A stretch of 64,000 bases of DNA, taken from assembly GCA_000091205.1 (NCBI GenBank), contig AP006500.2. The stretch is one strand, 5' to 3'. Under the pieces are notes generated by a model. The model was not told the DNA's origin. It was given only the letters and a program-made list of their open reading frames with translations, and did no database searches. Positions within the stretch are counted from its first letter, which is position 1, and the number at the start of each line of letters is the position of its first letter. This DNA is from Cyanidioschyzon merolae (taxonomy: Eukaryota). Position numbers and translations under genes: made by a program. Shown piece after piece: positions 19,586 to 42,700 of this stretch.

Positions 19586-20728
19586 ATGCGTATGGAACAG
19601 CCAGCAGCGTTTCTGAGTGGCAAACTACAACCCTTGTGCCTAGATCGCAAGTTCCAGTTGCGCGTGAGCGGGTCACGGCAACAGTTTCGGGGCCGCCGCC
19701 GACCCATTCTCGTCGCCCGGGTCGGGATCGGCGTCATCGGTGCAGGCCGCATAGGACAGGTACATGCAGCAACGATAGCTCGTCTGATGAATGCAGAGCT
19801 ACGAGGTATTGCTGATCCAATTGAAGCAGCTGGGCGTAAGGTGGCCGAGAGTTTCCAGACAGCGTACTTTCCAGACTATCGTACGCTGCTAGAGGACCCC
19901 GATGTACAGGGTGTCGTCATCGGCTCGCCAACGCCGTTTCACGCGGAACAAATGATAGCTGCAGCCGAAGCCGGCAAGCATATATTTTGTGAAAAGCCTA
20001 TCAGCAACGATCTCGCGACGATCGACCGTTGTTTAGAGGTGGTACGCACCAGCGGCGTCAAACTCCTGGTGGGGTTCCAGCGGCGCTTCGATAGTAACTT
20101 TAGCTACGTACGTGACCAGATTGAGCGTGGCACCATTGGGCAAGTGCGTATGTTTCACATCCATTCAAGAGATCCGGCGCCACCTCCGGCGGAATACTTG
20201 GCGAAAAGCGGAGGTATTTTCCTCGACATGTGTTCCCATGATTACGATATGGCGCGTTTTGTGACGGGCCAGGAAATCGAGGAGGTTTACGTGGTTGGCA
20301 AGGCCTTCGATCCCGAGGCACAGGCCGCAAATGATCTCGACACCCACATAACGGTACTGCGGATGTCGGGCGGGGTCATGGGCACCATCGACAACTCTCG
20401 TCGTTGCGCATACGGCTACGACCAGCGTATCGAGGTGTTTGGCTCCGACGGTTCGTTAATCGGTCAAAACAAGAGCAAGCACTCCGTAGTAGCCGCCGGT
20501 CAAGATGGGTATCATCATGGACGACCTTTTGATTTCTTTATGGATCGCTATCTGGAGGCGTACGGGAACATCATGACCGCATTTGTGCAGATGATCGAGC
20601 GCGGCACAGACCCCCCTGTCTCGGGGTTAGACGGTCGCGCGCCGGTGCTCGCTGCGCTGGCCGCAGCCCGAAGTGTCAAGGAGAATCGACCAGTGAAACT
20701 CAGCGAAGTCGATATACGCATGCGCTAG
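19586..20728 (+). CDS. Gfo/Idh/MocA-family NAD(P)-dependent oxidoreductase (myo-inositol 2-dehydrogenase-like)
   Basis: Rossmann motif IGVIGAGRIGQVHA, conserved FCEKPIS, then LLVGFQRRFD and GGIFLDMCSHDYDM. The first ATG is at 19586 (track start is TTG 19463). N-terminal extension of about 45 aa. Confidence 0.85.
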   Translation: MRMEQPAAFLSGKLQPLCLDRKFQLRVSGSRQQFRGRRRPILVARVGIGVIGAGRIGQVHAATIARLMNAELRGIADPIEAAGRKVAESFQTAYFPDYRTLLEDPDVQGVVIGSPTPFHAEQMIAAAEAGKHIFCEKPISNDLATIDRCLEVVRTSGVKLLVGFQRRFDSNFSYVRDQIERGTIGQVRMFHIHSRDPAPPPAEYLAKSGGIFLDMCSHDYDMARFVTGQEIEEVYVVGKAFDPEAQAANDLDTHITVLRMSGGVMGTIDNSRRCAYGYDQRIEVFGSDGSLIGQNKSKHSVVAAGQDGYHHGRPFDFFMDRYLEAYGNIMTAFVQMIERGTDPPVSGLDGRAPVLAALAAARSVKENRPVKLSEVDIRMR

Positions 20729-23700: not shown

Positions 23701-23760
23701 CTGTGCAGAATACGATAGCATCGAACGCACAGAGAACAGTCGTGCAGTGCTCGTAGACGC

Positions 23761-25038
23761 TCAGTCTTCGATTCGTGCTTTCCGATCCATCCATTCCTCG
23801 AGCTTCTCTCTCGGACTTTGACGATTTTCTAGGACGTCGATGACGCCTAACAGAATCGGAAACTTCAACGCTCGTCTCATGGGGTTCAAGTGCGGAAACT
23901 GCCTTTCAATGAGACTCGCAACTGCCTTTGCCGTCGGCACGCCTTCAGCGACCTGACTCGAAGTCTCTAAAATATGAGCAAGGGTTTCACCCTGACCCAG
24001 GCGGTAGCCAACCGTTCTGTTCCGACTGCTCGTGCCGAAGCAGGTCATAAACGTATCGCCTACGCCACTGAGGCCGGCCACAGTCACCGGACGAGCACCA
24101 AAACTCCGCGCAAGGCGCCGCATCTCCGAGCAGCCGCGAGTCACCAGCGCAGCTGTCGCGTTCATACCGAGACCAAGTCCCTCGCAGATGCCGGCAGCAA
24201 GGGCGATAACGTTCTTCACAGCGCCACAAATTTCAACGCCAACAACGTCGCTCGAGCGAAATACTTTCAGTGCTGGTGAGCTAATAGCGGCTGCAATACT
24301 CGCACATGCAGCAGCGTCATGCGAGGCCAGGACGACGGCTGCCGGAAGATCGGCCAACATCTCATGGGCGAAAGAGGGTCCCGAGAGAAACATGCATGGC
24401 ACCGGACGCTCTTTACCGAATACGTCGTCGAAAATCTCGTACATAAAGTTGCCTGTGCTAACCTCAATACCCTTGCTTGTGGACAGAATCGGTGTTCCGG
24501 GCGCCAAATTCGGGCGAACGCTCTCCACGAGAAAAGCTCTGCTCGCTTGGACCGGCACAGCATGAACACATAACCAGCAGCCTTTCAGAGCATCTTCGGG
24601 GTCCGTGGTCGCTCGAACAAGCTTTGGAAACCGGAAGCCTGGAACTAACGCAGTGTAGCGAGGGTTTGTGCGCTCCTTGTTGATCGTCTCTGCGACCTCC
24701 GCTCGACGAACAAGCAGCACAACCTGGTGACCATTGTTAGCCAAGGCAAACGCCATAGCGCTCCCAAAAGAGCCGCCGCCACAGATCGCTACGTGTCGAG
24801 CTTCCTCTTGGCTCTGCCCAGACAATCGTGCGTGCGTAGGTGGAACCTTCCGCCTCACAGACCGCCGCCCATAACTGGGGTCAGCAGAAGGGCGTCGCCA
24901 CAGCGTCACAGAAAAGGCGGTTTCCGTTCGAGCGGATCCTGCGCCCTCGAAGCCCCTAGCCAATGAGATGGCACAAGTGAACGCACTCGAAACAGACCTC
25001 GTGCTCTGTAGCCGCGGCACAGTTTGCTCAGGCTGCAT
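23761..25038 (-). CDS. NAD(P)H-dependent glycerol-3-phosphate dehydrogenase (GpsA type) with about 90-aa presequence
   Basis: VAICGGGSFGSAMAFALA, LSTSKGIE, GAVKNVIALAAGICEGLGLGMNA and GLSGVGDTFMTCF..SRNR.VG. ATG at 25036-25038. TGA stop at 23761-23763. Confidence 0.9.
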   Translation of the reverse strand: MQPEQTVPRLQSTRSVSSAFTCAISLARGFEGAGSARTETAFSVTLWRRPSADPSYGRRSVRRKVPPTHARLSGQSQEEARHVAICGGGSFGSAMAFALANNGHQVVLLVRRAEVAETINKERTNPRYTALVPGFRFPKLVRATTDPEDALKGCWLCVHAVPVQASRAFLVESVRPNLAPGTPILSTSKGIEVSTGNFMYEIFDDVFGKERPVPCMFLSGPSFAHEMLADLPAAVVLASHDAAACASIAAAISSPALKVFRSSDVVGVEICGAVKNVIALAAGICEGLGLGMNATAALVTRGCSEMRRLARSFGARPVTVAGLSGVGDTFMTCFGTSSRNRTVGYRLGQGETLAHILETSSQVAEGVPTAKAVASLIERQFPHLNPMRRALKFPILLGVIDVLENRQSPREKLEEWMDRKARIED

Positions 25039-26019
25039 GAGCTACTATCCTGCATCGGAACGAAGGACGCTCACCCGCGGTAGTGTCGCGCTTCTGATCC
25101 GCGCAGGCGCGTAAGCCGGCAGGAGTCGTTGCTGCATCGAGTTTTTTTCGATGACAGAGCGTTTCCATTGACCATGAATCCCCAATAGCGGGATGGGTAC
25201 TACGATTCATGTAATTCTCCATCATGACGCAACCTATCTCCAAGTTCCATTACCCATATTTCCTCTCAGGTATACTGGTCTTTTCCTTTGTTCTATCGTA
25301 TGCCAAGTGCCTGCAGTGAGCACCCACCGCAGCGCCTAAACCGCTTGTGCGGATGCTACACGGAGACAGAGTAGCTTTGTCATACCACTGAGGGCGTCGG
25401 CTCGAGGAATGCTACACCTGACACGGGATCAGGGCTACTTATCATTCTGGGAGTCTGGAAGCTGCGCAGGCAGGCGTACTGCCTGCGGCAGCGCAGAGCG
25501 ATATTCTTCGAGGACACCACGACCAGCGCGACGCCCAGACGCAGCATACCGCTCTGAGTCCCAGAATAAACTGCATTGCGGACGAGTTGCTCAGATCTCT
25601 CTGCATGACCAGGCTCCGAGAGGTCTATGAAGCACGAGCCTGGGAGAATCGTCCGACTCGCGGGACATTCCGCCCAGAAGGTAAACTTTCGTCAATATGG
25701 AAATCTTTGCTCCCCATGAATTTTTATCATTGACAGGGAAGGCAATTGTTATCTCGCTGCCAGTCAGTAGTGAGTCTCTGCTCTTCGTTCTATAGAGTAC
25801 AGTCGATAGGCGCACCCAGGAGATCTGCCAGGCACGAGGTACGACGTGGATATCGCCATTGAAGAGAAACGCGATCCTGATCATTAGCATGTTGTATACC
25901 GTACAAGGTGTATTTGCGTTGAAGTCGTAGCAACGTTTAGTCTTCAGTTCAGTTGTGTTCCAACCCCAAAGCAAGTATATACGAGCGATTTTTCGTGGTT
26001 TATAGCAGAAGCGTTCAAA

Positions 26020-28263
26020 GTGTGTTCTTTTTCGAAAATAAAAAAGGAAAGTTCTGGACGAAGAAGTGGAGGATCCTGGAGGCACGGTGTCGCCAGGTGG
26101 CGAAAAGAACGAAAAATAGTGCCGAGCAAAGATGAACAGGAGAAGAAGAAGAAGAAGCGAGAGCCAGACCTCAACGGCTGCAAGAAAGGCGACAGCATGA
26201 CGAGATGATAGTGAACGCCTGCCTTCTTGGATGTATCAAGGATCCGTACGAGCAGAAGATGCGAGAGACCACCAGAAGCCGTGTCGATTCCTACTCCAGG
26301 AGCGTGCGTAACACTTCTTTTTGGACTGAAGCATACGGTGAAGGAGATATACGATGACCTTACCGACACGAAAACAGTCGAGGTTCCGGAAGCGTTTTTT
26401 TTAACAAGACCCTCAGCCGCCACTTGATGCTTGGCACAGGGGGACGTCGAGGGAAAATGAGCGCATGTGCGTCCTCCATGAAAAATACCCCTACTAGGGT
26501 CTCAAAGGTACTCGTTACAGGGGTGACTCGCGTATTTTCGAATACAGGGCAAAAAAGTATCTCACGAACCTGAACAACCATATGATCATGAAGCTCGAAC
26601 GTTTCATGACACGCTCCATCGTTGCGCGCTACCCGGGCCTCTCTCGCAAAGGGATACGGGCCATCATCAATGGCGTCAGGAACGATAGTAAGAATGAACA
26701 GGAGATCGAATTCCTCGACGAGAAGACATCACACAGGAGAACGAATGAAGCTTCTGCAATCCGTACGGCAATTCAAGAGCACCGTCCGGTCTCGGAGCTG
26801 GTCAATCCAGCAGGAAATGTATCAGGTATGGAAAAAGAAAAGCAAAGATGTTATCCCCTAATCCTGCGCTATTTCGTGTGTTTGGACCGCGAACTCGATC
26901 CCAAGGCCAATATGGAGCTGGGTGTGGAACAAAATGTAGAGTCAGAGAAACGGAAGGGTATCCTAACGGGTAAGCGCTTTAGCGTTGTTGCGTTATGCAT
27001 CACCAAGTTCCATTTTGTAACAATCGACTCCAGAGTCCTCAACGGCATCATGAAGGAGGTCTGTCTGGAGTTCGATGTAAGGAAGATAGAGTTCACCAGT
27101 GAAAACCGGGAGACGTACTGGAAGAATATCTTCAATTTCAAACGTCTCAATACGTGCAAGCAAAAGGTATTCACTGGCATCATCGAAACCGATGGAGTAG
27201 CCATGTGTGTACACTCTCGGCGCTTGAAGGCAGATCGTCCAGTTCCGTCCTCGACTGCGCCCGTGGCGAAGCATGAAGAAAACAAGGAGGCTGGCCTTAC
27301 AACGCAGGAGGTACAGGAGAACGATTTTGTTGTTGGCACGGACCCTGGGAACACGAATATCGTAACCATCGCAGTACCCAAGCGTGCGGAAGATGATATC
27401 GACGGCAACTTACGTCAGAAGGACATCCGTCTTTGAAAGCTCACGACAGCTACATCTTACCGAGAATCAGGAAAACTGAATGCAAGGAAAAGAAATGAGA
27501 CGTGGAATGCAGGAGTGAAAGAGCACAAGGCAGCGATCAGCCAGGTGACGAGCCGAGGAGCGGACTTTGAAGCTTTTCGAGAGTTCATGAAAGTCCGCGC
27601 TGCTCTTGACGAGCCGCTGTCGAAAGAATCTACAAAGCCCCGGTGGGCTCGTCTGCTTAGAATCTTGTACTTTGGGAAGCAGCACGCATTTGCCAACTTC
27701 TTCAATGAGTTGAGCGCTCTCAAAGAGGACAAAATTCAGAGACTCGTGGTGGTATACGGAGCAGGGCATTGGATGACACGGAAAGGTAGCACACCAGCTC
27801 CATCGACACGAGCGTATAAGGAGTGCACACTGTGCTTCGTCATGATGTCGATAGATGGGTTCCGAACGTCGTATACATCCACCATGAGCTAGGGTGTGTA
27901 CTTGAGAGTGTCGAGATGGAAAAGTGCCAGCAGAGCACTGAGGATGTAGCAAACTACGGAGCGCTGACAGAGCACCTAACGGCATGGAGGGTGCGAGTTC
28001 GAGGTCTACTTCCGTTGGTGAGTACAACCAATGCCAAGAAACATATGAAATTCGTGAACCGAGACTTCAATGCCGCCAACAGTATAAGCAGATAGGCGGT
28101 GCTGGAGAAGAGGCCCCCAGAGTTGACCAGAGCCAACTTTCTGGGGCAACCTCTGCAGATGGCGCTGTACGAGAAGAAGCTGAAGCCAGTAGTAAATGGC
28201 CGGTCCAAAAACCCTGGGAGAATTCTGCACGCTGGCGTATATACATCAACGCTATCGGCTTGA
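26020..28263 (+). pseudogene. TnpB-like / Fanzor-type RuvC nuclease, copy 1, near full length but disabled
   Basis: Ordered motifs are [16 protein letters not shown] (Asp 27341-27343), QRLVVVYGAGHW..KG.TPAP and SIDGFRTSYT (Gly 27857-27859 where copies 2 and 3 have Glu). They are followed by KFVNRDFNAANSI (Asp 28063-28065). Lesions are TAG 26495-26497, a frame change at the T-run near 26395-26405, TGA 27437-27439, a +2 nt insertion at 27878-27879 and TAG 28093-28095. The 5' limit is uncertain. Confidence 0.75.
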
Positions 28264-28804
28264 TGTGTGTGCGTTCGTTTGCTCGTTTTGCTGGCGGGAT
28301 TGATGGCGTCGATCCCGAGTCCAGATGGAGAGCTGGCGGGAATGCTGCTGCGCTCTTTTCGCTGCAGTGCGTTGCGAGGCATTCTGTAACGAGAGGCAGG
28401 TTTCCAGGGGCAGCACAGAGCAGCAACACAGGATACGTTCAAAGGCGTGCTTGGCGTGCTTCCGAGCGGCACCTTCGGGGGTTTATTTCGGAGCTTCGCC
28501 TTCGAGCGCTCTCCATAAGCGAAATACCAACGGTTTCAGTGATGGGCGGGCAACGATGCGTACAGGTGAGAAACGCTCCAGATGCCACGACCACCGCGCG
28601 ATCGTTGCGCCAGGAAACGACATAATTTTGAGAAGAAGCATATACAGGCCCAATCCTAATGATAAGCGATTTCATGTAGTCGACGCATCGAATATATGTA
28701 GCCGCTAGGCACCGACGCATCCTCGTTGACATGCGGAGCGCAGCGTTCTCCTGTCCAATGCCCAGTCATGCCCCGTACAGGTATTCATTTCTTGACCGCA
28801 TCAT

Positions 28805-29563
28805 TCATTCCTCAGCGGACGCCGATGACGCCGGTCGAGAGCGAGGCCGAAAGCGCAGCGGTGCAGCGCTACGCTTTCGGCGACTCGAGCCCGAGGTGGC
28901 TTTCACGATGTTCGCGTCGGCGGCCGTGCAGATAAGACGCAAACGATCAGCGTAAACGTAGGCCTCGGTAGTCGCGTCTCCAGCGGAGCGTGCATGACTG
29001 GTCACAGCGGGAACAGCGCGTCCGTCCAGGCAGTCCGGCCGAGGCGGTAAATGGGAAGCAAGTCGCGGGCCCTCGAGTTTCAGGCTCCCGCTCGCGGGAA
29101 CTGCCGGTTCAACGCGTATACTGGCATCCGTGGCGCCACCTAGGTCACTGGTCCGTGGCAGTCGCTCCACAGCAGCGTAGGTTTCCGGTTTGCGCTCGAG
29201 TCGAAGCAGTGCATGTCGGACGAGAAAAGTCCACACGTTATCTCGCAAGTTGTAGTGTGCGAGGCGTCCCCTGAGCACGGAACGCTGGCGGACTTTCCGT
29301 CGTAGATAGCGAGCAACTGCTTGGTCAAACTGGGTCCACACCAAAGCAGCCTCTGACTCCTGCAAGTGTCCCGCGCTCAATAACTCGTCGAGGGTGTCCT
29401 CAAGAGTCAGGCCAATTGTTGAGGCCCGGTAGTGAGCGTAAAACACCCCCGGCTGGTTAGCGGCGGTGTTTGCATCTTGTTTCCCTCCCCGAATGCTTTC
29501 CGTTGTAGCTTGGCCCGCATCTGGCTCTGCTTTTGCAGTACGCTGCGGTGTTGCGTCGCTCAT
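28805..29563 (-). CDS. GTF2A2: transcription factor TFIIA small (gamma) subunit with an internal insertion
   Basis: YRASTIGLTLEDTLDELLSAGHL...ALVWTQFDQAVARYL...RGRLAHYNLRDNVWTFLV matches the TFIIA-gamma N-terminal helical and beta-barrel signature. ATG at 29561-29563. TGA stop at 28805-28807. Confidence 0.7.
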   Translation of the reverse strand: MSDATPQRTAKAEPDAGQATTESIRGGKQDANTAANQPGVFYAHYRASTIGLTLEDTLDELLSAGHLQESEAALVWTQFDQAVARYLRRKVRQRSVLRGRLAHYNLRDNVWTFLVRHALLRLERKPETYAAVERLPRTSDLGGATDASIRVEPAVPASGSLKLEGPRLASHLPPRPDCLDGRAVPAVTSHARSAGDATTEAYVYADRLRLICTAADANIVKATSGSSRRKRSAAPLRFRPRSRPASSASAEE

Positions 29564-30203
29564 CGCACGACCAGGATATTCCCCTACGGAGCACGCCTCG
29601 GCTGGCGGCTTAGGTACTGATCTTCACCGTACTGTACGTCCTACCTCAAGAGTTATCGCTCCTATTTTGTTTCACCTTGATCCAAGTAGGTTAGCAGTTT
29701 AAAGACTGGTTGCTGCCCAGCCGGTCCAGCAAGGCGCTCACGAGACGCAAACACGGAACGTTTCGCGCTCGCGCGGCGTTTGCAACGCCGGATACACGCG
29801 CTAGCCAGGGCGATCCATGACTACTCCCACCTCTATCACTTCTCCTACATCAATAACTACTTTCTGGGGTCCTAGAACGGAACGGAATGGTGGTCCCTTC
29901 CCTGGATGCCGATGATCATCACGCAATGGGCACTTCCACCCCAGTCTCATCGATCCAACACTATTCAAGTAAGTTATTGCGATCGTCCCGTGCCTTCGGC
30001 ACCGTCGTGAAGCTGCCGACGATCGCAGCACCACGGGACTCGGTTTATGCCGGCGATCAGGCTCCGCTGCAGTTCATGGACCGGCTGCGCTGCTGCATCA
30101 TGTGCATCGCTCAGTCTAGTTAAAAGCGTAAGCAAGCTCGACCAAAAATCGTTTGATCTCTGTGTATCCCCGATGAGGCTTTTGATGCTGGATGCGGGGT
30201 GAC

Positions 30204-30845
30204 CTATCGTCTCCCGGTCCACGAGGAAAGACTCGGCATCCTGGCACGGCATATTGGCAACGACACCGGCTCCCGTGGCGTATTGCGAGCATCGGGTGCA
30301 TTCCAGAGAACCCGGCCATCGTGCTGCCTGCACCAAGCTGCTAACACTGAAGGGCCAGCATATGATCCTCCTCTTTCCTGTACGCGATGCACAGGGCACT
30401 CTGGGTGCCCAGGCCTATATGGGGCGCTTGCCATGACGCTGGGCGTGTCGCCGCCAATGCCGCACGAAGACAAGATGCATGCACGACGTGTTCTATGCTG
30501 TGCGACTGAAGCGTCTGCCCAGGTTTCGACGAATGCGGAATCGGTGATGGCAATCAGGGAAGAGCACACAACTCCGCTTCGAATCTTGCACCGTACTATC
30601 AGCACAAGGTCAGTAGTTCCGATGGGTATGTGGGTGCGTTTCAGAGACTCTCCGAGTACCAACTCTATTACGTCGATTTGCGCTACCACTACGGGCGTCA
30701 GTTCGATGTGCGTGAGTATCATTCGATGGGTGCGCTGGCGTCGACATAATCGCGCCCGTATCCGGCGCAGCTCGTGCACGACTCCATAGCGCTTTCTTAG
30801 CGCTTTTGTGGCGATACGTTCGGGCAGCAAGGATTCACTCATCAA
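30204..30845 (-). CDS. hypothetical protein (frame uncertain; may continue in ORF 29974-30399 after a frame change)
   Basis: 213-aa ORF, but a 196-aa ORF on the opposite strand overlaps it completely. No family recognised. Confidence 0.25.
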   Translation of the reverse strand: MMSESLLPERIATKALRKRYGVVHELRRIRARLCRRQRTHRMILTHIELTPVVVAQIDVIELVLGESLKRTHIPIGTTDLVLIVRCKIRSGVVCSSLIAITDSAFVETWADASVAQHRTRRACILSSCGIGGDTPSVMASAPYRPGHPECPVHRVQERGGSYAGPSVLAAWCRQHDGRVLWNAPDARNTPREPVSLPICRARMPSLSSWTGRR

Positions 30846-31099
30846 AGCGGTGCGTTTGCCACAGACTTGGGTGAGCGTTCGGAGCTGCGAGCTCGTGCTG
30901 TCAGCGTGCTATTCCCCGATGCATCCAGTAGTATAGACGCCGTCCTCTCGAAGAAAAGCCAAAAAGCGATCAGCAACCATCCAGCAGACTTTCTCTTCAT
31001 GGAGTCTGTCTCTTTCCCGCTCATGGACGCCCCAAGTACGCAATCGACTCAGCAAATTTGCACCATCAAAAGTCGCCTCTGAAGCGCTTTTCGTGTCCT

Positions 31100-31138
31100 C
31101 ACGCACGCACGCACGCACGCACGCATGCATGCATGCGT
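31100..31138. repeat. (CACG)n(CATG)n microsatellite
   Basis: cacgcacgcacgcacgcacgcacgcatgcatgcatgc read directly. Confidence 0.9.
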
Positions 31139-31687
31139 GTGTTCCAGTGCCGCAACCGCATCGCAACGCCAGCAATGAACGCGCAGGTACAGCAATGTCC
31201 AGAATCGATCCGTGTCGCCGCTCCGTGGCCCGACTGAAGATGCCGGCGGCGAGTGCCGGCATCATCAATGCCCGACGAAGCAGCAGCAGCAGCGGCGGCG
31301 GTGGCGGCATCGATAGCGCGCCCGACAGCTGCGCACCGCTGCCGCCGAGCGCAGAATCGAAGGATTGCCGCCGCCGCCGCCGCCGCCGCCGTCAAATCCA
31401 GCGCCTACGAACCTGTAGCTACTGTTCTTATAGTTGTTTTCGGGGTATCCCTCACATACAGAACAAACTCGCAGGGTTTCGCAGGGCCCTATAGATACTG
31501 TGGTGCAGATCAACAAACCTTGCGCTTACGAACCTTGAGAACCGACGGAAATTACTACGAACGAACGCAGAGACGTACAGCGTACCACGACTTGATCAGC
31601 GACGGTACCAACCTGTATACACTCCAGCGCTCTCTTTTGAGCGTGCAAGTCGTGCACACGCAAACTTCATCGGGCACCGATCCCTAA

Positions 31688-33655
<1,968 letters not shown>

Positions 33656-34370
33656 ACACGTAAAGTGAATACCCTCAAGATGCCTGCTATCGTCCGCTGC
33701 GGCATTCTCCAAAGCGCGTATCCGCTTGTCGTGGACGCGAATACTGCGTGTCGGCGCTGCAGTTCCGGGACGGCCGCAGGGCCCGCAAGCGCGACACGCC
33801 TCGCTGGCGCGTTCCCGCTGGTAGCTGTCAACGCGAGCTTGTCGTGGGCTTCTCTGCCCAGAGCCGCTGTTATCGGAACCCGGGTTACGGTACTCAAGTG
33901 CGGACAGTGCAGGCAGGGGTCCGCCTAGGTCTGCAACGAGTGCCGCACTGGTCGGCGCCCGCCAGTTCAGATTCGAAGCACATGCCGAAGCGCGTCAGTG
34001 TCACCAGGTCGCTATGAAACGCCAGTGACACTCTCTCCAGATCCAGATACCCAAGTGAGTGACTTATGCTCCTTCAGCGAGTGTCAAGTTCCCGGTGCAT
34101 AAGCTTGCCGAACTGGCGCAGCATGCATCCTGCCAGATGGAAGCAGTTCGATGGTTCACGCTCGCTAGCCTGACGGATCATCTGTAGTCTTTTGTACATA
34201 CCAGGTTTGCAGCCCAGCGAGCCTGGATTCCGATGAAGCACTCGACCGCGATAGCGTACCAGGTCGTCTATTGCAGAGCACGACTTGCATCGATTCTGGA
34301 ATACCGCCACCAAACGCCGTTCGAAAGTCGAACGACGCCAACGGTGTACAGTAGTGGCGAGTGACCCGCC

Positions 34371-35400
34371 CTAGACAAGACGTCTCCAAGTGACGTGCAG
34401 ACGCCATCCGATCTTTCTCGACCGGCCACCTACGACTACTGCTCCCAACTTCTTCTCATATAGTTCGACTTTTGGAGGTTGTTCCACAAAGTTCTCCCGT
34501 GTCAACTCTGGAGGTCTCGTCTCTATCACCGCACATCTCCTTATATTGGTAGCGGCATTAAGGTCTCGGTTCACAAACTCCATACGTTTCTTGCAATCAT
34601 TGGTTGTACGTACTCATGCGAGTAGCCCTCGAAGTCTCGCTCTCCTTTCCATTTGCTCCTCCGTCAGCGGTCCATACTTTTTTATATCTTCAGGGCTCCG
34701 CTGACACTTTTCCATCTCCACTGTCTGAAGTGTACACCCCTGTTCATGGTGTGTATACGAGGTTCGGAACTCATCTACAGGTATCGTAACGAAACGCCGT
34801 GCGCCCTCCTTGTACGTTCTTGTCGTTGGAGCTGGCGTAGTCCCTTTTTGGGTCTTCCATCGCCTTGCTCCGTACGCTACGACGAGCCTCTGATTTCCAT
34901 CCTCCTTCAGGTCACTCAACTGATTGAAAAAATTCGCGAACGCCCGCTGCTCCCCACAATACAAATTCATTCGCAAACGAGCCCGCCGGGGCTTGGTATA
35001 CTCCTCCCACAGCGCATCCCAATGGGCAACGCGAACTTTCATGAATTTCCGAAAAGCTGCAAAGTCCGCGCCTCGTCTAGTCACCTCGCTCAAAGCTTCC
35101 AGGTGCTCTTTCATTCCTGAGTTCCAAGTCTCGATTTTCTTCCTCGCATTCATTATACCGGATTCTCGATAGTATCTTGCTCTCGAGAGCCTCAAAAGAC
35201 GCATGTCTTTCTGACGTAAGTTACCATCAGTCCCATCTTCCGCACACTTTGGTACAGAGATGGTTATGATGCTCGTATTCCCAGGGTCCGCGCCAACGAC
35301 AAAGTCGTTATCCTGCACCTCCTGCATCGCAGGATCCGCATCATTCTCATCTACATCCTTCGCCAGGGGCGAAGCCGAGGACGGACCAGGAAGCGGGCCC
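34371..35400 (-). pseudogene. TnpB-like / Fanzor-type RuvC nuclease, copy 2; the N-terminal half is missing and there is one in-frame TGA
   Basis: DFVVGADPGNTSIITI (Asp 35286-35288), QRLVVAYGARRW, PVDEFRTSYTHHEQGC (Glu 34770-34772) and EFVNRDLNAATNIRR (Asp 34563-34565). ORFs 34614-35327 and 34371-34583 are in the same frame, separated only by TGA 34614-34616. Homology to copy 1 runs upstream to about 35400 (GPLPGPSSASPLAK vs [12 protein letters not shown]) and then stops. Confidence 0.75.
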
Positions 35401-35401
35401 G

Positions 35402-36323
35402 ACGGCGCTGGAGGTGCAGAAGAACGCGTTTGTCGTTGGCGTGGATCCCGGGAACACCCACATCGTTACCATCGCAGCACCCAAGCGTGAGGAAGATGGC
35501 TCTGTCGGCAACTTACGTCAGAAAGACATAAGTCTGTTGAAGCTCTCATGAGCGAGATATTACCAAGAATCCGGTATAATGAATGCGACGGAGAAAAGTG
35601 AGACATCGAACTCAAGAGTGAAGGGAATTTGGAAGCGATCAGCCGGGTGACGAGCCGCGGAGCCGACATTGAAGCGTTTCGAGAGGTTATGAGCATTCAC
35701 GCAGCTGATGACGAGAGCTTTTGGAAAGAATGCACAAAGTTCAGGTGGGCTCGTCTGCGTATGAACCTGTACTGTAGGAAGCAGCGAGCATACGCCAGCT
35801 TTTTCAATCAATTGAGCGCCCTCAAGGAGGACATGAGCCAAAGGCTCGGAGTAGCATACGGGGCAGGGCGCTGGATGACCCAAAAAGGGTGTACACCAGC
35901 TCCAACGACAAGAACGTACAAGGAGTGCGCACATCGTTATGTCGAAATACCTTTAGATGAGTTTCGAACATCTCATACACACCACGAGCTGTGTTGTACA
36001 CTTCAGAGGGTCGCGATGGAGAAAAGCCAGCGGCTCGCTGACGGAAATGCAAATAGCAAGGAGGGCGAAACTTCGAGGACTACTCGCTTTGGTTCGTAAA
36101 ACTAATGATAGGAAGAAACGAATAGAGTTCCTGGACTGAGACTTTAACGCCGCCATCAGTATAAGGAAATGTGCAGTACTGGAAAGAAGACCCCCGGAGT
36201 TGGCGAGAGCCAACTTTGCGGGGCAACCTCTTAAAATGGAGTGATACGAGAAGAAGTTGAAACCAGTAGTAGGTGGCCAGTTGCTGAACGCCAGCACAGT
36301 CGTCTGCACATCATTGGGTAGAC
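35402..36323 (+). pseudogene. TnpB-like / Fanzor-type RuvC nuclease, copy 3; the N-terminal half is missing and it is heavily disabled
   Basis: AFVVGVDPGNTHIVTI (Asp 35444-35446), QRLGVAYGAGRW, PLDEFRTSHTHHELCC (Glu 35959-35961) and EFLD*DFNAAISIRK. In the last motif the Arg codon of NRD is TGA (36137-36139). Further stops lie at 35549-35551 and 36242-36244. There are frame changes near 35620 and near 36030. Confidence 0.7.
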
Positions 36324-36661
36324 AATCGGTCTACGGCGGACGGTGTGAGAAACGCCACCATTGTACACTGGCTTTCCAGCGTTTCTCTTTTGCAAGGCGT
36401 TTGGTGGTGTTTCCAGAGACGAATTGTTTACCAAAAACGTCTTCTATCGATCTTCGAAACCAACGTGCTGCTTCCTCTGTGCGGCACGGGGCGTACGCTA
36501 TGCGCTTTTCTGCTGATTGACAGCGGAAGCGACGAGTCCGGTTACTGCCTTGAAGACTTTGACGCTTTGGAGAGACCATCATATCGATGGTTTCAGTTTT
36601 CTGACCTCCTCCTAACCACCACGCTCGGATCTCTGTTGCAACGGCACGCGCAGCAGCTCTC

Positions 36662-37610
36662 ATGGCAGCCAAAGCTGAACCCGGGCATCGAGAGAGTGGA
36701 AAGCTGCATCAAAGGTGGCGGAAAGCCAATGAAGCTGGTTATCTGAGCAAGCTTGCATCACCTGCAGAGCTGCGAGCACTCGTCCAAGCGAAACTGACAC
36801 CCGAGGAGCAAGTGCGTTTTGGGATGCAGTGTGCAGGGCTGGCAGCCAAGGCACTTGAGGTACTCGACAAGTCGCTTACATCTTTAGAGCAAGACATAGA
36901 GAACGAGTCTTGTGACTGGGAAATAGAATCGGACGATGCCATGGACCGTGTTGCGAGACGATTCCTTGCCGATCTCGAACAGCTAAAGCAGACTGGCAGC
37001 ACGCGTCGACTCACCCAACTCAGTATTTGGCGTCGCATCAGTCGCTAGGTCGTACTGGCGGAAAGGCGAGCATGAACTGCAGGCTGAAGGCAGTCCTCTT
37101 GTGAGGCAAGTCGCGAAGATCGCGGACCAGGCATCCAAGACTCCGGGATACCGCCAGGTCGTTGCCTGGGAGCATCTGGAAGAGCTCGCAGATGCGGCAA
37201 CTGCAGATGGTGTATTCGGTTCGCAGTCGCGGTCGATGTCACGTATCTTACGTCGCCCAGAAAGTCGGTTTCGACTCTTGCTCACGAAACTAGAGCTTGG
37301 TGAGGAGCTCTGCACACGCGACGAGCGGCGTTTGATGCTAGCATTGGATACCTCTGATGCGAGACTTGAACCCGAACGCATGCGCTCGAGGAAGAGGGCA
37401 CCTGGTGGAGCGCAGGATGGCGCCTCTGCAAAGCGCGACCACGGGAGGTCTGCATCCGTTTCGTCGTCGTCGTCGTCGTCGTCGTTAGAGCCAGAGCACG
37501 AGGATCACGTGCACCCAGCGGCCAAGAACGCGTCTTCCGCGAGAAAGAAAAGACGACATCATCGGCGACGATCATCCAACAAAAACGAAACCCTGGAGAA
37601 TCCTCAGTAA
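36662..37610 (+). CDS. hypothetical coiled-coil / Ser- and Arg-rich protein; reading frame split into two ORFs (36662-37048 and 37101-37610)
   Basis: ATG at 36662. The second frame is already open from 36987, so the two frames overlap at 36987-37048 and a single 1-nt indel would join them. No family recognised. Confidence 0.35.
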
Positions 37611-38604
37611 GCTAGCATTTGAGCGAGATTGCTGCCGAATCATCGCCGTGCCCTGGCCCAGTGGATATCGCATGATGCATCGTTTACAGCGTTTCAGTCA
37701 TGATCCTGGGTGGTGATTATCCCCGCCGGAATACCTCAGGACTAGATCGCGGATCGTTGGAAGCTACGCTCGCGTCCATCGCGTGTACCATGCGCTGCAA
37801 AAGTGGTGCTTGTCTGCAGCTCCTCAAAGAGCACATGATCGCTTGCTGTGCTGCGAGCACCACGCCGCCGGCCTCTGTCGGCAAACGCGCTCAAAGGCGT
37901 ACTCGCGACAAGCATGAATTCAGCAGGAATATTGGCGCTGGTTGAGGCACTGCGACTGACTATCGAGAGACCAATCTCAGCAACCGCAGCATGCGTCGAT
38001 CACTGGGGCGCAGCTTAAACTCCAGCAGCGATGCGGCAGTGTCAGAGCCAGACCTGCAGACTAGTGGACAGAGCGCAGCATGCCTCGTTCTGGATTTCGC
38101 AGAAGTACCCGCCAGAGACGCTTTTCAGGGTAGCCAGTGGCGGATCGCGTCTATTTCGCTACCGGGAATTCGGACGGATTCCGCGTCCAGTCGACCGGGG
38201 ACGGTTCACGCTCTCCACTCGGACGTCAACGCGTTTCACTTTGGTGATGAAGGTGCTGCATTCATCGACCGACCAGTCTGCATGACGATTCGAAGAACAT
38301 CGGGCGGAATCTTTGATGCATACCTCTGGAGCATGATTCGCAGAGGTGTACTTTTTTGCGGGTCGTCGAGGTGGAGCGTGTGGCGAGAGCCACATATTTG
38401 AGCGACCTCGCACCGGGCGTGATCCAAGTCACCATTCGGCTGATGCTCAAGCGTGCCTCGCGTACCCGACATGTCGTTGCTCACCTTCGTGATGCTGGTG
38501 TGCTTCTGTGGGTAGCGCACTTGCGCCCGTTTGCGAAGCGTAGCGGACCTTGAGGACAAATGGCACGCTCCAGCAGCCATGCGCTTGCATAGGTCATGCA
38601 TTCA

Positions 38605-39449
38605 TCATGTGATGCTTTCCAAAGCAGCACCCAGGGCGTGGTCATCAAACACGTCGTGGAAATCCCAGAACTGCACATTCCAGCGGGGGTGGTAGCGCCG
38701 ACACCAGCGCTCAAACCCCTGGATATATGCGGGTCGCAGGTGCGCATCCAAAGCGTTCCGGAACGCCACCATGGACTCCTCGATGATCGAGGGATCCATG
38801 AGAATGCTCCCCGACAACGGATCCAGCATCACCTTGACCGGAACATGCTCATAACCCCAGAAAGGCAGTTTCGTCCCGATATCGCCGACCGCTGCCCATC
38901 GGAATGAAAACGGCACATGTCGCTGGAACGCTGCAGCGAAAGCGCGATTCCCGACTCGAGGCGACCCAAAAGTCACACTCATCACCAGATCCGATGACAG
39001 ACGCAACGACTGTGAATTCTCAAAACACGTCATATCGAGGGCAGCGATGCTTGCCAGAGCCCCGCCGAGAGAGTGACCTCAAAAGATCACCGGTTTGTGG
39101 TTGCAAGATGCACTATCCAAGGAGTTCATCGCACTACACGGTTGCGCTTCGCTCGCATCTGCATCTGCTGCTGCTGCTGCTGCTGCTGCATAGGTCAGTT
39201 GAGCGTTCTGTGCAGTCTCTGCTTCCCAGCGGCTGGGGTGCCGGCTGCACTGGGGTCCGCGCATCGAGATCCTATCAGGTTGAGGCTTTCCGAACGATAC
39301 CGTCCATCAGGAAGCTTATCCATGATCCACGAATGCATCCTGATGTGCTGTTCAAGGAGCAGGTTGCTTCTTTCCATGCATAGCTCATGCACCGCTGACA
39401 GGTGCCGCGTACGGACGCACGCACGGCTCGCGCAAAGCCGCCCAGACAC
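38605..39449 (-). pseudogene. class 3 (fungal/plant-type) triacylglycerol lipase, disrupted
   Basis: The nucleophile elbow GHSLGGALASIAAL (39061-39078, minus strand) is immediately preceded by an in-frame TGA (39079-39081). Downstream are TFGSPRVGNRAFA and VGDIGTKLPFWGYEHV. The upstream part (..MHSWIMDKL..) is in another frame, so there is also a frameshift at about 39195-39264. Confidence 0.65.
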
Positions 39450-39767
39450 TCAAAGGCGTCTGCGAAACCGTTCCATCAAATCAGACTTGACGCTAAAACG
39501 ACAGCACTGTTCTGGTTGCAGCGTAACGTGGACGCGTCCGTATCGGAGTCGAGGTCTGGTCCTCGGGTCCAAGCAGCGTCGGTGCATCGCCTAGTACCTG
39601 GTTCAAACGAGGGAACACCTGCGTGGATGCGGCTTCATGTGGAGTGTCCTATTTGTACAGTATACGACAACGATGCGCTGGAGAGGATATTTTGGAACAA
39701 TCATATATATTTAGGACAATAGTCCGCCGAGCGTTTCGGGATTTCAAATGCAAACGCCTCGGAACGG

Positions 39768-42700
39768 ATGCGCCCGTCGGCCGGGCACACTGCGCAGCTG
39801 CAGCGCGCTCCCGCTCCAAAACACCCTATCGCTCTAGTTCACAAAACACTTCAAGCAATGACGTCTGCGGAAGCGTTTCTGCTCCCGTTCCATTGGGAAG
39901 ATGTGGTTCTGGATCCGGACCTCAGGAGCAAGCACCCCGCGAGAGGGCCGGTTGCTCCGCGCTACGCCGTTTCCGTGGACGCATTCGACCTCTCCGACCC
40001 TGATATGGTACAGAGCGCTGTGGCGCTCGCCTCCGGTCACGTTTCCGACCATGCTGCCAACGCGCTGCTCATACCCGAAGACGTTGCGGAAAACGAAACC
40101 ATCCAATGTTTGGACTCGCTTGCCGGTGTCGATGGCGACCAGTCCCTGTCCTGGTGGCTCGCTCCTCTGAGCGACCGAGCAGCAGCGCAACTGCGCGCTC
40201 TTCTTTGGTGCATTCATCACTGGTGCGGACTGAATGACTTCAGCATCCGGGCACAGCTTTTTACTTGTGTTCAACACGGGATCAAGCAAGCACTACACGT
40301 CATGCGGAACGCAGCCCGCGCTGAGCTCAGTGCAGACCCCGCAAACCGAACCGGTACGGATACCTGGCGCTCTATTCTTCGCTTGGTGGCGTTCGTTAGC
40401 GCCCACTGGCTGCAGGCCGTGGAGCGTGAACTTGCTGAGGACGCTGTCGCCTTAAGTCTGCCGCTTGCCGGTACCTCTGGTGGCAGCAGGGTAACTCGTC
40501 TTGAGAGCAGCTCGGCGCGCACAGGCACCAATCAAGGCGGCACACCGGCGCGCTGTCGGGCGAAGCGCCCCAACCTTCGCAAGAAGACGTCTCGTTTCAT
40601 CGTCGAGTCGGATGCTTCCGATGAGGAATCGCCAGCATACGCAGAAGACCAGGCAACGGTATGCACCGGGGACTTGCCTGGAGAACGCGAGCATGCTGGT
40701 CCAGAGAATTCATGGGCTGAGCTCTACGAGGGCGAGCGCGAGCGTCTCCTAGAGGCATTCGGTGAGCTCCTGCGCCAAGAAGGCATCATCAAACTCGCCT
40801 TTCCCTCAGCAATTCCCGAAGACGCATACCTCTACCTGTTTGTGCGCACGTCCTGTGCCTTGCTCGAGTCGCGTCTGGTATGTCGCAAGGAGCGAGCACG
40901 AGCGCTGCTCGTTGATCTCATCGTAGAGTGCCTCTCGCGCTACGGACAAGCTGGTCGATTGTGTCCCATTCTCGTTCACAGTTTGCAACGGTATGAGCAT
41001 GTAGCCCCGGTTCTCGTCGATATCGTGGTGGTGCTGTGTCAAGATGACGCTGACAGCGGCAACACGCAGCGCCGCAGCGGCTCTAATACCAGGGACGCGC
41101 TCCAGGAATCGTTGACTCGTGGCGATGTACCAGCGCTCTCCGTCAGCCAAGCCGGACGCGATGACTGCATTCGAGACCTGATGACGCAAGTGACCCAGAT
41201 TCCTATTAGTGAACTCGCTCGTGACAATACCTGTGCGCGTCATGTTGCACGGTTTCTCACGGAGCTTGCAGAGCGCTCTCCTGGGACGCTGGTTCCCTAT
41301 TTTGCTGCATGGATTCCGCATTTCGATGGTGAGGCATACTCCGTTCGTAACGCGCTTGTGCAAGCCTTTGGATGTGTCCTGAAGCATCTGGCAGAACACA
41401 GGAGCCCTGAGGCTGTACAGGCGCCTCACCAGGAGCCACACGACGAGTCCATGACGCTCCAAGAGCGCCTGCTGCAGTTGCTCTTGCGACGCCTGGATGA
41501 CGTGCATGCTTTGGCGCGCTCGCGGACGCTCCAGGTCTGGCAACAGCTCATCGAGGCTCGTTGTGTACCCGTCAGCTTGTATGCTACCCTGGCTGCTCAG
41601 GTCGCGCAGCGGCTGCAAGACAAGTCGATGCACGTACGCCGTGCTGCCCTGCAACTTATTGCCGTTGCCATCCGGTTGAACCCGTTTGCTGATCGTCTGC
41701 AGCCGGCATTGTTTATACAGCGCCAAGCTCAGTGCCTCCGTATAGCGCCCGATGACCCCGCCTCAACGTTCGAGATGCCCTTCGCGTTAGCGCAAGAAGG
41801 TGCTTCTTTCTATGCGGGCGCAGCTACTTTTGCGGAAATTCTCAACAAAGCTATCCCGCTGGTCAGCAGGCTGTGTCGTTCCCGTCAGAACGGTGACGTG
41901 CTCGATGCCATTCGTGTCTTGTGCACAGCTTACCAGTTCGAGGTGCCAGCTGCTGTGGCTGAGGCACCCAAGCAGACTTTACGTCTGGGTTTATCCCGGG
42001 AGGAAAGCGTTCAGACAGCAGCGCTCGATGCCTTTTACACCATGTGCTTCGTTCTGCCGCTGGAACAGGTCTTGCGCTCGACAAAGCAGCAACAAGATAT
42101 GGCACTCGCGACAGAAGCGCTGCAGACCATGGGTGTCTTGGCCATCACCAGATCCCTGGTGTCGCTGGTCGCTCGGGCTACTGTTGGCGAACTGACCTGC
42201 TTCGAGCGACTCTTGCCAGCATTGTATCGCAGTGAGCGCCTCGCTCCTTCGGTCCTGCAGTGCTGGTGGGACGTGCTCGCCGGTCGAATTCCCGGTGCGA
42301 ACTTGGAACTCATCCGTGGATGCACCTTCCTCATTCAGTGCGTCGTATCCGCAAAGCCACTCACCAAGTCGCAATGCGAGCTGCTGCGAGAGCACGCGTT
42401 TACTGATCTGGTGACTGCCCGTTGGGCCTGCGCGGCACTTACCCACGGTCTAGCAGCCCAGTCGTTAGACTCCGAAGATGGACTGCTTGTCGGCAAGGTC
42501 GAGGCGCTGCTCGTCGACGACACCAGGAGTGTGTACTGGCCAGCAGCCGCTCAGGCCGCTGTCACATGCCTCTTCCATTGCAGCCGGGATCCTTCGCAGA
42601 GCGTTCATCGGGTTCTGCAGCGCCTTGTGGAGCGGCACCAGGTTGCACAGCAACAGGCGAGAGGCTCGCAAGGCAGCACGGCTCATGGCGACGTGCACCA

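Follow-up and report, generated by a model that had tools for sequence, protein, structure and literature searches.

A head-to-head pair of truncated Fanzor1 elements between a helicase gene and a condensin gene

Introduction

Fanzor nucleases, which are TnpB-like, RNA-guided and eukaryotic, and bacterial TnpB nucleases are the described systems closest to the locus reported here. A Fanzor element normally encodes its omega-RNA at the 3' end, and in TnpB / IS200-IS605 elements the 3' end of the nuclease ORF overlaps a structured right-end non-coding sequence. For the arrangement of the locus, the relevant precedents are inverted transposon pairs at one site, such as the maize 'double Ds', which are a known source of chromosome breakage and rearrangement. 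Unspaced inverted repeats in general are prone to breakage and are revised through centre-break deletion or translocation (PMC3300023).

Here we analyse a 64,000-nucleotide stretch of contig AP006500.2 (the window) in which positions 34306-36407, between a helicase gene and a condensin gene, form an imperfect inverted repeat with arms of about 1.05 kb that are 72% identical. The repeat consists of the 3' halves of two copies of the same element: copy 2 lies on the minus strand, copy 3 lies on the plus strand, and the two meet at about 35368-35392. The evidence base for the comparisons is short-read metagenome contigs.

Results

The repeated element is a Fanzor1 family

All three copies in the window (copies 2 and 3, and a longer copy 1) belong to the Fanzor1 family, as established by profile matches to solved structures and by a fold search. 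A single-sequence search of the PDB gave no match and the family profile was needed: a profile built from 33 homologues matched the solved Fanzor1 chains 9cf0 (E = 2e-16), 8gkh (1.5e-11) and 9cer (0.015). The Fanzor1 fold (WED, REC and split RuvC) was tested on the full-length relative P0002 rather than on the fragments, and its AlphaFold model (mean pLDDT 76.5) matched SpuFz, GtFz and PpFz in Foldseek with E = 1e-15 to 1e-12 and a probability of 1.0. A Pfam scan of copies 1 and 2 and full-length relatives returned only a sub-threshold match to the Cas12f1-like TNB domain (E = 0.02-0.05), and the N-terminal half of the protein carries just the Pfam label DUF8286.

The element is a high-copy, single-ORF repeat unit of about 2.8-3.1 kb with sharp 5' and 3' boundaries, and 266 related stretches were found in JGI metagenomes. 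Just before RuvC-I the family protein has a disordered linker of about 100 aa, made from 75-nt tandem repeats. The 3' end is a conserved, hairpin-ended non-coding segment of 55-90 nt that occurs in two sequence subtypes; RNAalifold applied to 40 aligned 3' ends gave no meaningful consensus structure, and an Rfam search of 24000-40000 matched no family. The element termini are weakly inverse-similar (about 14/21 positions, by eye), and the element has no transposase gene and no clear target-site duplication.

Derivatives with an internal deletion that retain the 5' module and the 3' part (L021, L036 and L055/L068) are taken as a signature of DNA transposons. Single copies cut at aa 492-499 also occur (L021b, L036b and L066b), and because the 5' module lies directly upstream of L021b and L036b, these two are internal-deletion derivatives and not 5' truncations. 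Deletion endpoints in the family cluster just 3' of the linker repeats. In many full-length copies (L057, L065, L028, L021 and L034) an inverted duplicate of the 5' module immediately precedes the shared core, always at the same junction. LINE-like 5' truncation was considered for the family and rejected, there being no poly(A) and several apparent truncations being internal deletions that keep the 5' module.

Copy 1 served as the reference for the two arms:

25139-28235, plus strand: copy 1, a full-length but decayed element of the same family
25139-25708, plus strand: 5' module of copy 1
from about 25810, plus strand: core of copy 1
about 26110-28240, plus strand: ORF of copy 1

Copy 1, which diverges from the family consensus by 21%, is a pseudogene: its reading frame is interrupted by a TGA (27434-27436) and shifted near 27878, and its DEFRTS motif reads DGFRTS.

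Two copies cut just before RuvC-I meet head to head

The earlier note, made from the letters of the window and their open reading frames, described TnpB/Fanzor-type nuclease copies on opposite strands, fused head-to-head and truncated just 5' of RuvC-I, and the comparison with the element family confirms this arrangement. Compared with itself by blastn, 34295-36417 matches its reverse complement over 2173 columns with 71.6% identity (E = 0); the 75-80% identity estimated by eye was a little high. The inverted repeat ends about 10 nt beyond the element ends, both flanks are unique, and no family sequence was found elsewhere in the window outside copies 1-3. The features of the two arms are as follows:

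34306-35392, minus strand: copy 2, the 3' 1.09 kb of a Fanzor1 element, holding a single 75-nt linker repeat, the half of the ORF that spans RuvC-I to RuvC-III, and the non-coding 3' end
34306-34370, minus strand: 3' non-coding end of copy 2, terminal hairpin subtype 'CGTCGTTCGACTTTCGAACGGCG', from 3'-end alignments of 40-78 copies
34371-34373, minus strand: natural stop of copy 2
34551-34571, minus strand: NRDLNAA of copy 2
34614-34616, minus strand: in-frame TGA, the sole in-frame stop of copy 2, aligned with Leu codons of other copies
34758-34775, minus strand: DEFRTS of copy 2
35271-35288, minus strand: RuvC-I motif DPGNTS of copy 2
35358-35374, no strand: perfect mini-palindrome cttcgcc-agg-ggcgaag, 7-bp stem and 3-nt loop, in the zone where the arms overlap
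35368-36407, plus strand: copy 3, the 3' 1.04 kb of an older Fanzor1 element, with three in-frame stops, two frameshifts and a deletion of about 26 nt
35444-35455, plus strand: DPGN of copy 3
35549-35551 and 36242-36244, plus strand: additional stops of copy 3
near 35625 and near 36032, plus strand: frameshifts of copy 3
35956-35973, plus strand: DEFRTS of copy 3
36140-36142, plus strand: RuvC-III Asp codon of copy 3, with a TGA (36137-36139) immediately before it
36335-36407, plus strand: 3' non-coding end of copy 3, terminal hairpin of the other subtype, 'GCGTTTCTCTTTTGCAAGGCG' (TTTTTC type)

Copy 2 corresponds to aa 460-751 of P0002 (tblastn) and to element reference positions 1989-3190 at 84% identity (blastn). 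Copy 3 corresponds to aa 442-752 of P0002, recovered by tblastn in three pieces. Both arms are homologous to copy 1: 34414-35391 of copy 2 is 75.6% identical to 27238-28211, and 35358-36281 of copy 3 is 72.2% identical to 27255-28204. The decay of each arm had been read correctly, in that copy 2 keeps all three acidic positions (in DPGNTS, DEFRTS and NRDLNAA) and is broken by its single TGA, and the stops (at least three) and two frameshifts ascribed to copy 3 were all located. Copy 3 retains the catalytic D, E and D of the RuvC motifs, the TGA standing directly before the third. By analogy with other Fanzors, the 3' non-coding end of copy 2 is presumed to be the omega-RNA or right-end region.

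The arms start at about aa 433-460 of P0002 (752 aa), so each lacks about 430-460 aa and about 1 kb of 5' non-coding element sequence; the N-terminal half is missing from both, as had been proposed, but the loss is larger than the 350 or so residues then suggested. Because the WED/REC half is absent and stops are present, both arms are dead. As members of the family, copies 2 and 3 are fragmentary and non-functional, and the head-to-head feature looks like inert transposon debris, neither a working gene nor a new type of system. Reading TGA as a sense codon was rejected, as the TGAs align with Leu or Arg codons of other copies.

The junction recurs in other assemblies

Family homology extends to about 35392 in copy 2 and begins at about 35368-35386 in copy 3, and 35368-35392 can be read as part of either arm. 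There is a head-to-head junction where one had been placed (about 35395-35405), but the position was off by 10-30 nt. Measured from the DPGN codon, the cut points of the two arms in the window differ by about 30-45 nt, and almost no spacer separates the arms. The copy-2 side of the junction has one 75-nt repeat unit in the window and in L024 and two in other haplotypes; the unit number varies among haplotypes, so the centre is still unstable.

Seven other contigs (L024, L033, L044, L045, L046, L056 and L066) from at least five metagenome assemblies contain the same junction sequence, and the junction copies in the eight contigs, window included, carry allelic SNPs. This argues against an artefact in which a short-read assembler, working in a repeat, falsely joined copy 2 to copy 3 or to the helicase flank. 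The sole palindromic stretch is 17 nt, below the usual k-mers of assemblers; the arms differ by 28%, so the join is not a graph fold-back; the helicase-condensin order of the window is the same in a related species; and a second palindrome, L072, is reproduced in L071 from a different assembly. On the other side, L024, L056/L045/L046 and L066 agree with the window at the centre and in copy 3 but then run into other copy-2 arms, with left flanks of unrelated sequence; all four contigs with helicase alleles (L084-L087) end inside copy 2, and contig ends are frequent in the 75-nt repeat region. The arm switches in L024, L056/L045/L046 and L066 are sharp and fall within the most conserved part of the element, and these alternative copy-2 arms and left flanks are either chimeric assembly or real recombination. 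Weighing both sides, we hold an artefact of the join or of the helicase link to be improbable.

The arms differ in age and subtype and probably in ancestry

Copy 2 diverges from the family consensus by 12% and copy 3 by 23.5%, about twice as much. In a neighbour-joining tree, copy 3 clusters with copy 1 at a bootstrap of 1.0, apart from copy 2. The identity between the arms is no higher near the centre, and their 3' hairpins are of different subtypes. Copies 1, 2 and 3 show similar substitution spectra without bias, and hypermutation of a RIP-like or other biased kind was therefore rejected as the cause of the older look of copy 3. A single duplication is probably not the source of both arms, since they are unequally diverged, differ in hairpin subtype and are not sisters in the tree, and since the flanks are unduplicated. 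The earlier view that this is not a recent palindromic duplication holds. The hairpin subtypes follow the tree poorly, so that recombination between copies may blur the argument for different sources.

An old palindrome formed in a single event was also among the origins first listed. In its fullest form, fold-back (snap-back) priming at a break or during insertion would have produced an inverted duplicate of a 5'-truncated copy, and the left arm would later have been gene-converted by younger members. Such an event would account for two arms cut near the same position, for the short one-sided spacer, which is typical of fold-back junctions, and for the natural 7-bp hairpin at the axis, and the sharp switches of the left arm to other family members elsewhere would fit frequent conversion or recombination. 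Against it, copy 2 is consensus-like over its full length, the part next to the centre included, with no remnant resembling copy 3; the hairpin subtypes of the arms differ at both palindromic loci; the arms are non-sister; and the repeat stops at the element ends, while a chromosomal fold-back would have duplicated the flanks too. We regard this origin as unlikely.

We also considered a mobile head-to-head dimer that used its 3' ends as long terminal inverted repeats, moved as a single unit and was afterwards deleted internally, in the manner of non-autonomous DNA transposons. The inverted 5' module found upstream of the core in L057, L065, L028, L021 and L034, with the same junction in each, implies that one head-to-head junction has propagated, and deletion derivatives are common in the family. 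Copy 3, however, has no close relative: beyond the alleles of L024 and L056, which match it at 95-96% identity, the nearest non-allelic relative among 80 loci compared is at a distance of 0.30, which means that there is no dimer family carrying the copy-3 arm. The arms are moreover of unequal age, and no target-site duplication is recognisable around 34306 and 36407 when the sequence is read directly. A dimer of this kind is therefore a doubtful source of the window pair.

The locus in relatives and comparable pairs

In a related species (L083) the helicase gene lies 1.3 kb from the condensin gene and there is no family member in 21 kb, while the gap in the window is 6.1 kb. Among named organisms, the closest homologues of the helicase share only 54-62% identity with it. 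The comparison with related species that the earlier note had proposed thus finds the same order of helicase and condensin genes and the whole insert absent from L083. A longer head-to-head precursor was not found at the same locus; all seven allelic contigs already have the same junction. Exact-protein look-up of the helicase ORF (with either start codon), the copy-2 ORF, the ORF at 36662-37048 and the condensin ORF returned no record, and for a lipase fragment the one return was a contig of 942 nt.

Another head-to-head pair, independent of this one, occurs in two assemblies (L072/L071). Both of its arms are cut at about aa 337, its one-sided spacer of 58 nt comes from one arm, its cut points are 58 nt apart, and its arms again have different hairpin subtypes. 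A third pair, L057, is near-full-length and stands at another locus; it is the only undeleted analogue found, and it illustrates the precursor that the account we favour would require without being that precursor. In both truncated pairs the cut points lie about 30-60 nt apart on an element of about 3,100 nt, a closeness that by our own estimate has a chance of about 4% per pair if the cuts were independent and uniformly placed. Together, L072/L071, L057 and the window pair suggest that two insertions formed a quasi-palindrome whose centre was then lost in a roughly symmetric deletion. Given where the endpoints of the family concentrate, the agreement of the cut points in the window could partly reflect a shared hotspot and not one symmetric deletion.

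The clustering of truncation and deletion points near the boundary of linker and RuvC-I at several loci would also fit a self-targeted (nested) insertion, in which a new copy enters a specific site of a resident copy just 5' of RuvC-I. Such an event should leave the 5' part of the host element beyond the insert, but neither 33656-34305 nor 36408-39767 has family similarity, and the missing 5' part of copy 3 was not seen beyond copy 2 in any haplotype; the incoming copy should also be complete, and the copy in the window is incomplete. Self-targeting, once offered as a possible origin, is accordingly unsupported, and we think it highly improbable.

Discussion

Among the origins first proposed, two elements inserted head-to-head with later loss of the DNA between them is the one favoured by the unequal divergence, the hairpin subtypes and the tree, with L057 as the undeleted analogue. 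At roughly even confidence, we read the locus as two separate insertions that lost their shared middle in a roughly symmetric deletion and are now inert debris. Copy 3 would have entered the helicase-condensin intergenic region in an older wave of insertion, to which copy 1, judged by its divergence, would also belong. Copy 2 would have arrived later in the opposite orientation, giving a head-to-head pair like L057. This pair would have been an imperfect long palindrome, a type of structure that breaks readily, and its centre may have been lost in a single, roughly symmetric deletion, either through hairpin or cruciform processing and end joining ('centre-break') or through replication slippage across the base of a hairpin. 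The deletion would have removed both 5' regions and both WED/REC-coding halves, leaving arms cut at almost the same element position, within the repetitive linker immediately before RuvC-I. When copy 2 arrived, the two arms probably shared only about 85-88% identity, which is poor for cruciform extrusion, so the deletion may have been ordinary end-joining.

The feature itself is of little consequence, being two dead intergenic fragments of an abundant transposon. Its surroundings document a large Fanzor1 family with many open reading frames, and the two independent, near-symmetric head-to-head truncations are a natural example of the trimming of an inverted transposon pair. If the alternative flanks are real, the site would be a natural recombination hotspot. 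More broadly, head-to-head Fanzor pairs might be recurrent and mechanism-driven, with integration against resident 5' ends producing fragile quasi-palindromes that undergo near-symmetric central deletion (as in the window and L072) and, should the arms and flanks of L024, L056 and L066 be real, also ectopic recombination or break-induced translocation among wild strains; we think this quite unlikely and put it forward as speculation.

Comparison with known systems

By profile and predicted fold, the family resembles the Fanzor1 nucleases SpuFz1 of Spizellomyces punctatus (8gkh), PpFz (9cf0) and GtFz (9cer), and like Fanzor1 it has a RuvC split into the motifs DPGN, DEFRTS and NRDxNAA and, at the 3' end, conserved non-coding sequence. 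It differs from the solved proteins in being only 12-14% identical to them and in having the linker of about 100 aa built from 75-nt repeats, and copies 2 and 3 differ further in lacking the WED/REC half and in containing stops. With bacterial TnpB / IS200-IS605 OMEGA systems it has in common a single RuvC nuclease ORF whose 3' end overlaps right-end non-coding sequence with sub-terminal hairpins; the differences are that the Cas12f1-like TNB domain is matched weakly here, that the unit has no TnpA-like gene and that the host is a eukaryote.

The arrangement of the window pair resembles the maize 'double Ds' in that two copies of the same DNA-transposon family stand inverted at a single site, but a double Ds is an element inside an element, whereas the window has no split host element. 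It also resembles centre-break revision of palindromes, and the deletions or translocations of palindromic AT-rich repeats, in that a near-spacerless head-to-head repeat has lost its centre with near-equivalent endpoints and possibly in the exchange of arm and flank with other loci (PMC3300023). Unlike the arms of a revised palindrome, those of the window were never identical and come from two different element copies, and the deletion would have spanned kilobases, not tens of bases, by a route that we infer from the arms that remain.

Structure of the head-to-head pair

We aligned 34295-36417 with its own reverse complement and obtained 71.6% identity over 2173 columns, lower than the 75-80% that the earlier note had judged by eye, although its view that this is not a recent palindromic duplication holds. 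Self-alignment and frame reading agree that copies 2 and 3 lie head-to-head and are both cut near RuvC-I. Alignment with copy 1, which the earlier note had proposed, finds both arms homologous to the copy 1 stretch 26172-28235 (copy 2 75.6%, copy 3 72.2%); copy 1 is itself a pseudogene. As had been read from the sequence, copy 2 has the three acidic motifs and a single in-frame TGA. Copy 3 carries two frameshifts and two stops besides a TGA next to the third catalytic Asp codon, confirming the count of at least three stops and two frameshifts.

Features of copies 2 and 3 from frame reading
~35392 to 34371-34373, minus: copy 2, to its natural stop
35271-35288, minus: copy 2, DPGNTS
34758-34775, minus: copy 2, DEFRTS
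34614-34616, minus: copy 2, single in-frame TGA
34551-34571, minus: copy 2, NRDLNAA
~35368-35386, plus: copy 3, start
35444-35455, plus: copy 3, DPGN
35956-35973, plus: copy 3, DEFRTS
36137-36142, plus: copy 3, TGA and, directly 3' of it, third catalytic Asp codon

The junction zone 35368-35392 can be assigned to either arm. At 35358-35374 lies a mini-hairpin whose 7-bp stem is perfect; copy 1 has a weaker form of it at the equivalent position.

The element family

The translation of repaired copy 1 retrieved 126 homologues, all metagenomic, the longest being P0002 (752 aa). A profile of 33 family members matches the solved Fanzor1 structures 9cf0 (PpFz, E = 2e-16), 8gkh (SpuFz, 1.5e-11) and 9cer (GtFz, 0.015), and the AlphaFold model of P0002 (pLDDT 76.5) matches all three with probability 1.0; by profile and predicted fold the family is Fanzor1. 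Pfam gave a Cas12f1-like TNB match below threshold and nothing else. The precomputed Pfam label on the N-terminal half of homologues P0001-P0120 is DUF8286 (PF26935), and since profile and fold show the labelled proteins to be Fanzor1, this domain seems to represent a portion of the Fanzor1 WED/REC (N-terminal) half.

A metagenome scan yielded 266 related stretches, from which 80 loci were retained. The repeated unit is ~2.8-3.1 kb long, with a single ORF and no transposase, ~1 kb of 5' non-coding sequence and, at the 3' end, 55-90 nt of non-coding sequence terminating in hairpins of two sequence subtypes. At several loci the ORF forms one unbroken tblastn segment against P0002, so intact members probably persist in the family. 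Copy 1 is a full-length decayed element (25139-28235). Some seemingly 5'-truncated copies are internal deletions retaining the 5' module along with the 3' part, which we take to be the usual decay pattern of (non-autonomous) DNA transposons.

Upstream of copy 1 the 5' module (~560 nt) is directly oriented. Many other full-length copies carry it inverted, abutting the shared core at an always identical junction. The family's 5' regions are therefore modular, and a single old head-to-head junction appears to have spread together with the element. The hairpin subtypes, CGTCGTTCGACTTTCGAACGGCG and CAACGTTTTTCTTTTGAAAGGCG, can each form a stem, in different registers, and may be two variants of an omega-RNA terminal stem.

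The P0002 model is disordered at aa 374-471, where between one and four tandem 75-nt units encode a linker directly before RuvC-I; copies 2 and 3 are both truncated within it or next to it. The number of units differs between copies and also between alleles of the junction locus, whose centre has one unit in the window and L024 and two in the other allelic contigs. The 75-nt repeat region is also the end point of many contigs.

Features of the family in the window and in metagenome loci
Window 25139-25708: 5' module upstream of copy 1
L057:1719-2411, L065:3906-4470, L028:4044-4248, L021:3790-3969, L034:968-1162: other 5' module sites
L021:9606-10708, L036:5136-6109, L055:4418-6969, L068:4386-6965: internal-deletion derivatives
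Window 34306-34370 (copy 2), 36335-36407 (copy 3): 3' ends, alignment A2
Window 35289-35443 and 27262-27341, P0002 aa 374-471: tandem 75-nt units encoding approximately 'KHEEKKEADPATQEVQDNDFVVDA'
L072:4476-6973, L071:1-1263: second head-to-head pair, arms 82% identical
L024:3440-10450, L056:2640-9653, L045:600-7616, L066:240-10419: contigs with switching left arms

Origin of the pair

The arms appear to differ in age and ancestry. Divergence from the family consensus is 12% for copy 2, 23.5% for copy 3 and 21% for copy 1, with similar, unbiased substitution spectra. Neighbour joining groups copy 3, along with its alleles, with copy 1 (bootstrap 1.0) and places copy 2 among the younger copies. 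Inter-arm identity is no higher near the centre than elsewhere, the 3'-terminal hairpin is of the 'TTCGAC' subtype in copy 2 and the 'TTTTTC' subtype in copy 3, and the inverted repeat ends ~10 nt past the element ends, each flank being unique. Together these observations favour two events over one. A single fold-back followed by conversion of one arm is unlikely: fold-back at a break would have produced duplicated chromosomal DNA beside the arms, where we found none. Nested, self-targeted insertion is very improbable, because the window holds no family sequence besides the three copies.

Cut positions suggest how the centre may have been lost. A second, independent pair (L072, also present as L071 in another assembly) has both arms cut at ~aa 337, one arm being 58 nt longer, which leaves a one-sided spacer; its arms also differ in hairpin subtype. 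The two pairs are cut at different positions on the element, yet within each pair the arm cuts lie ~30-60 nt apart on ~3.1 kb. By our own estimate independent truncation would match the cuts with about 4% probability per pair, and is an unlikely source. Matched cuts are as expected from a single central deletion, in which a head-to-head pair would lose its centre with the end points opposite one another in a hairpin or cruciform. Inverted repeats lacking a spacer are known to be prone to breakage and to undergo revision through translocation or centre-break deletion (PMC3300023). L057:1-4932 is a near-full-length head-to-head pair with adjoining 5' ends. Derivation of the window pair, by deletion, from a head-to-head dimer that was itself mobile is quite improbable. 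In several single copies the 5' end points fall at aa 492-499, so the linker/RuvC-I boundary may also act as a hotspot at which deletions end; at least two of these copies (L021b, L036b) are internal deletions retaining the 5' module. The best explanation, with roughly even chances of being right, is that two elements inserted at different times and that a near-symmetric deletion then removed the centre.

Related species and allelic contigs

The window looks eukaryotic, with long intron-free ORFs including a DDX5-type helicase and a condensin Cnd1 subunit. Its proteins match metagenome contigs only; the nearest named helicase homologues are just 54-62% identical, so that the database contains no closely related sequenced organism. 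Comparison with a related species, as the earlier note had proposed, shows that its contig L083 (helicase 85% identical) has the window's gene order without the element pair. Because the order matches, the helicase-condensin gap is 1.3 kb in L083 versus 6.1 kb in the window, and 21 kb of L083 contain no family member, the window is collinear with L083 at large scale and the pair plus 36408-39767 is a lineage-specific insert. The remainder of this insert, from copy 3 to the condensin gene, has two ORFs without Pfam match (36662-37048, 37101-37610) and the C-terminal part alone of a class-3 lipase domain (38605-39033, minus), probably a gene fragment. At 20719-28805 the window has ~6 kb more DNA than L083; alongside copy 1 this includes a glycerol-3-phosphate dehydrogenase gene (23761-25038, minus) with a bacterial-type C-terminal domain (PF20618).

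The junction also occurs in seven other contigs, with allelic differences, and an assembly artefact is a reading we consider quite improbable. The window's helicase flank and copy 2 recur in L033 and L044; L024, L056/L045/L046 and L066 share the centre and copy 3, the right flank of L024 and L056 being the window's at about 97.5%. In these latter contigs the copy-2 arm switches sharply to other family members at ~35150 (L024), ~35300 (L056/L045/L046) and ~35100 (L066), and beyond the switch they run into three different, unrelated left flanks. Because the switch points fall within the element's most conserved part, chimeric short-read assembly is suggested. Genuine ectopic recombination, or a translocation at the palindrome, may also explain the switches, since the L056-type arrangement recurs in contigs 1-4% apart (L056 versus L045), the window type likewise recurs (window versus L044), and palindromes can resolve by translocation. 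The helicase-allele contigs all stop inside copy 2 and hence do not inform on the switching.

Copies 2 and 3 are fragments that have lost the protein's RNA-binding half and contain stops, so they would not be expected to function. The arms are remnants of Fanzor1 transposons, an already known kind of element.
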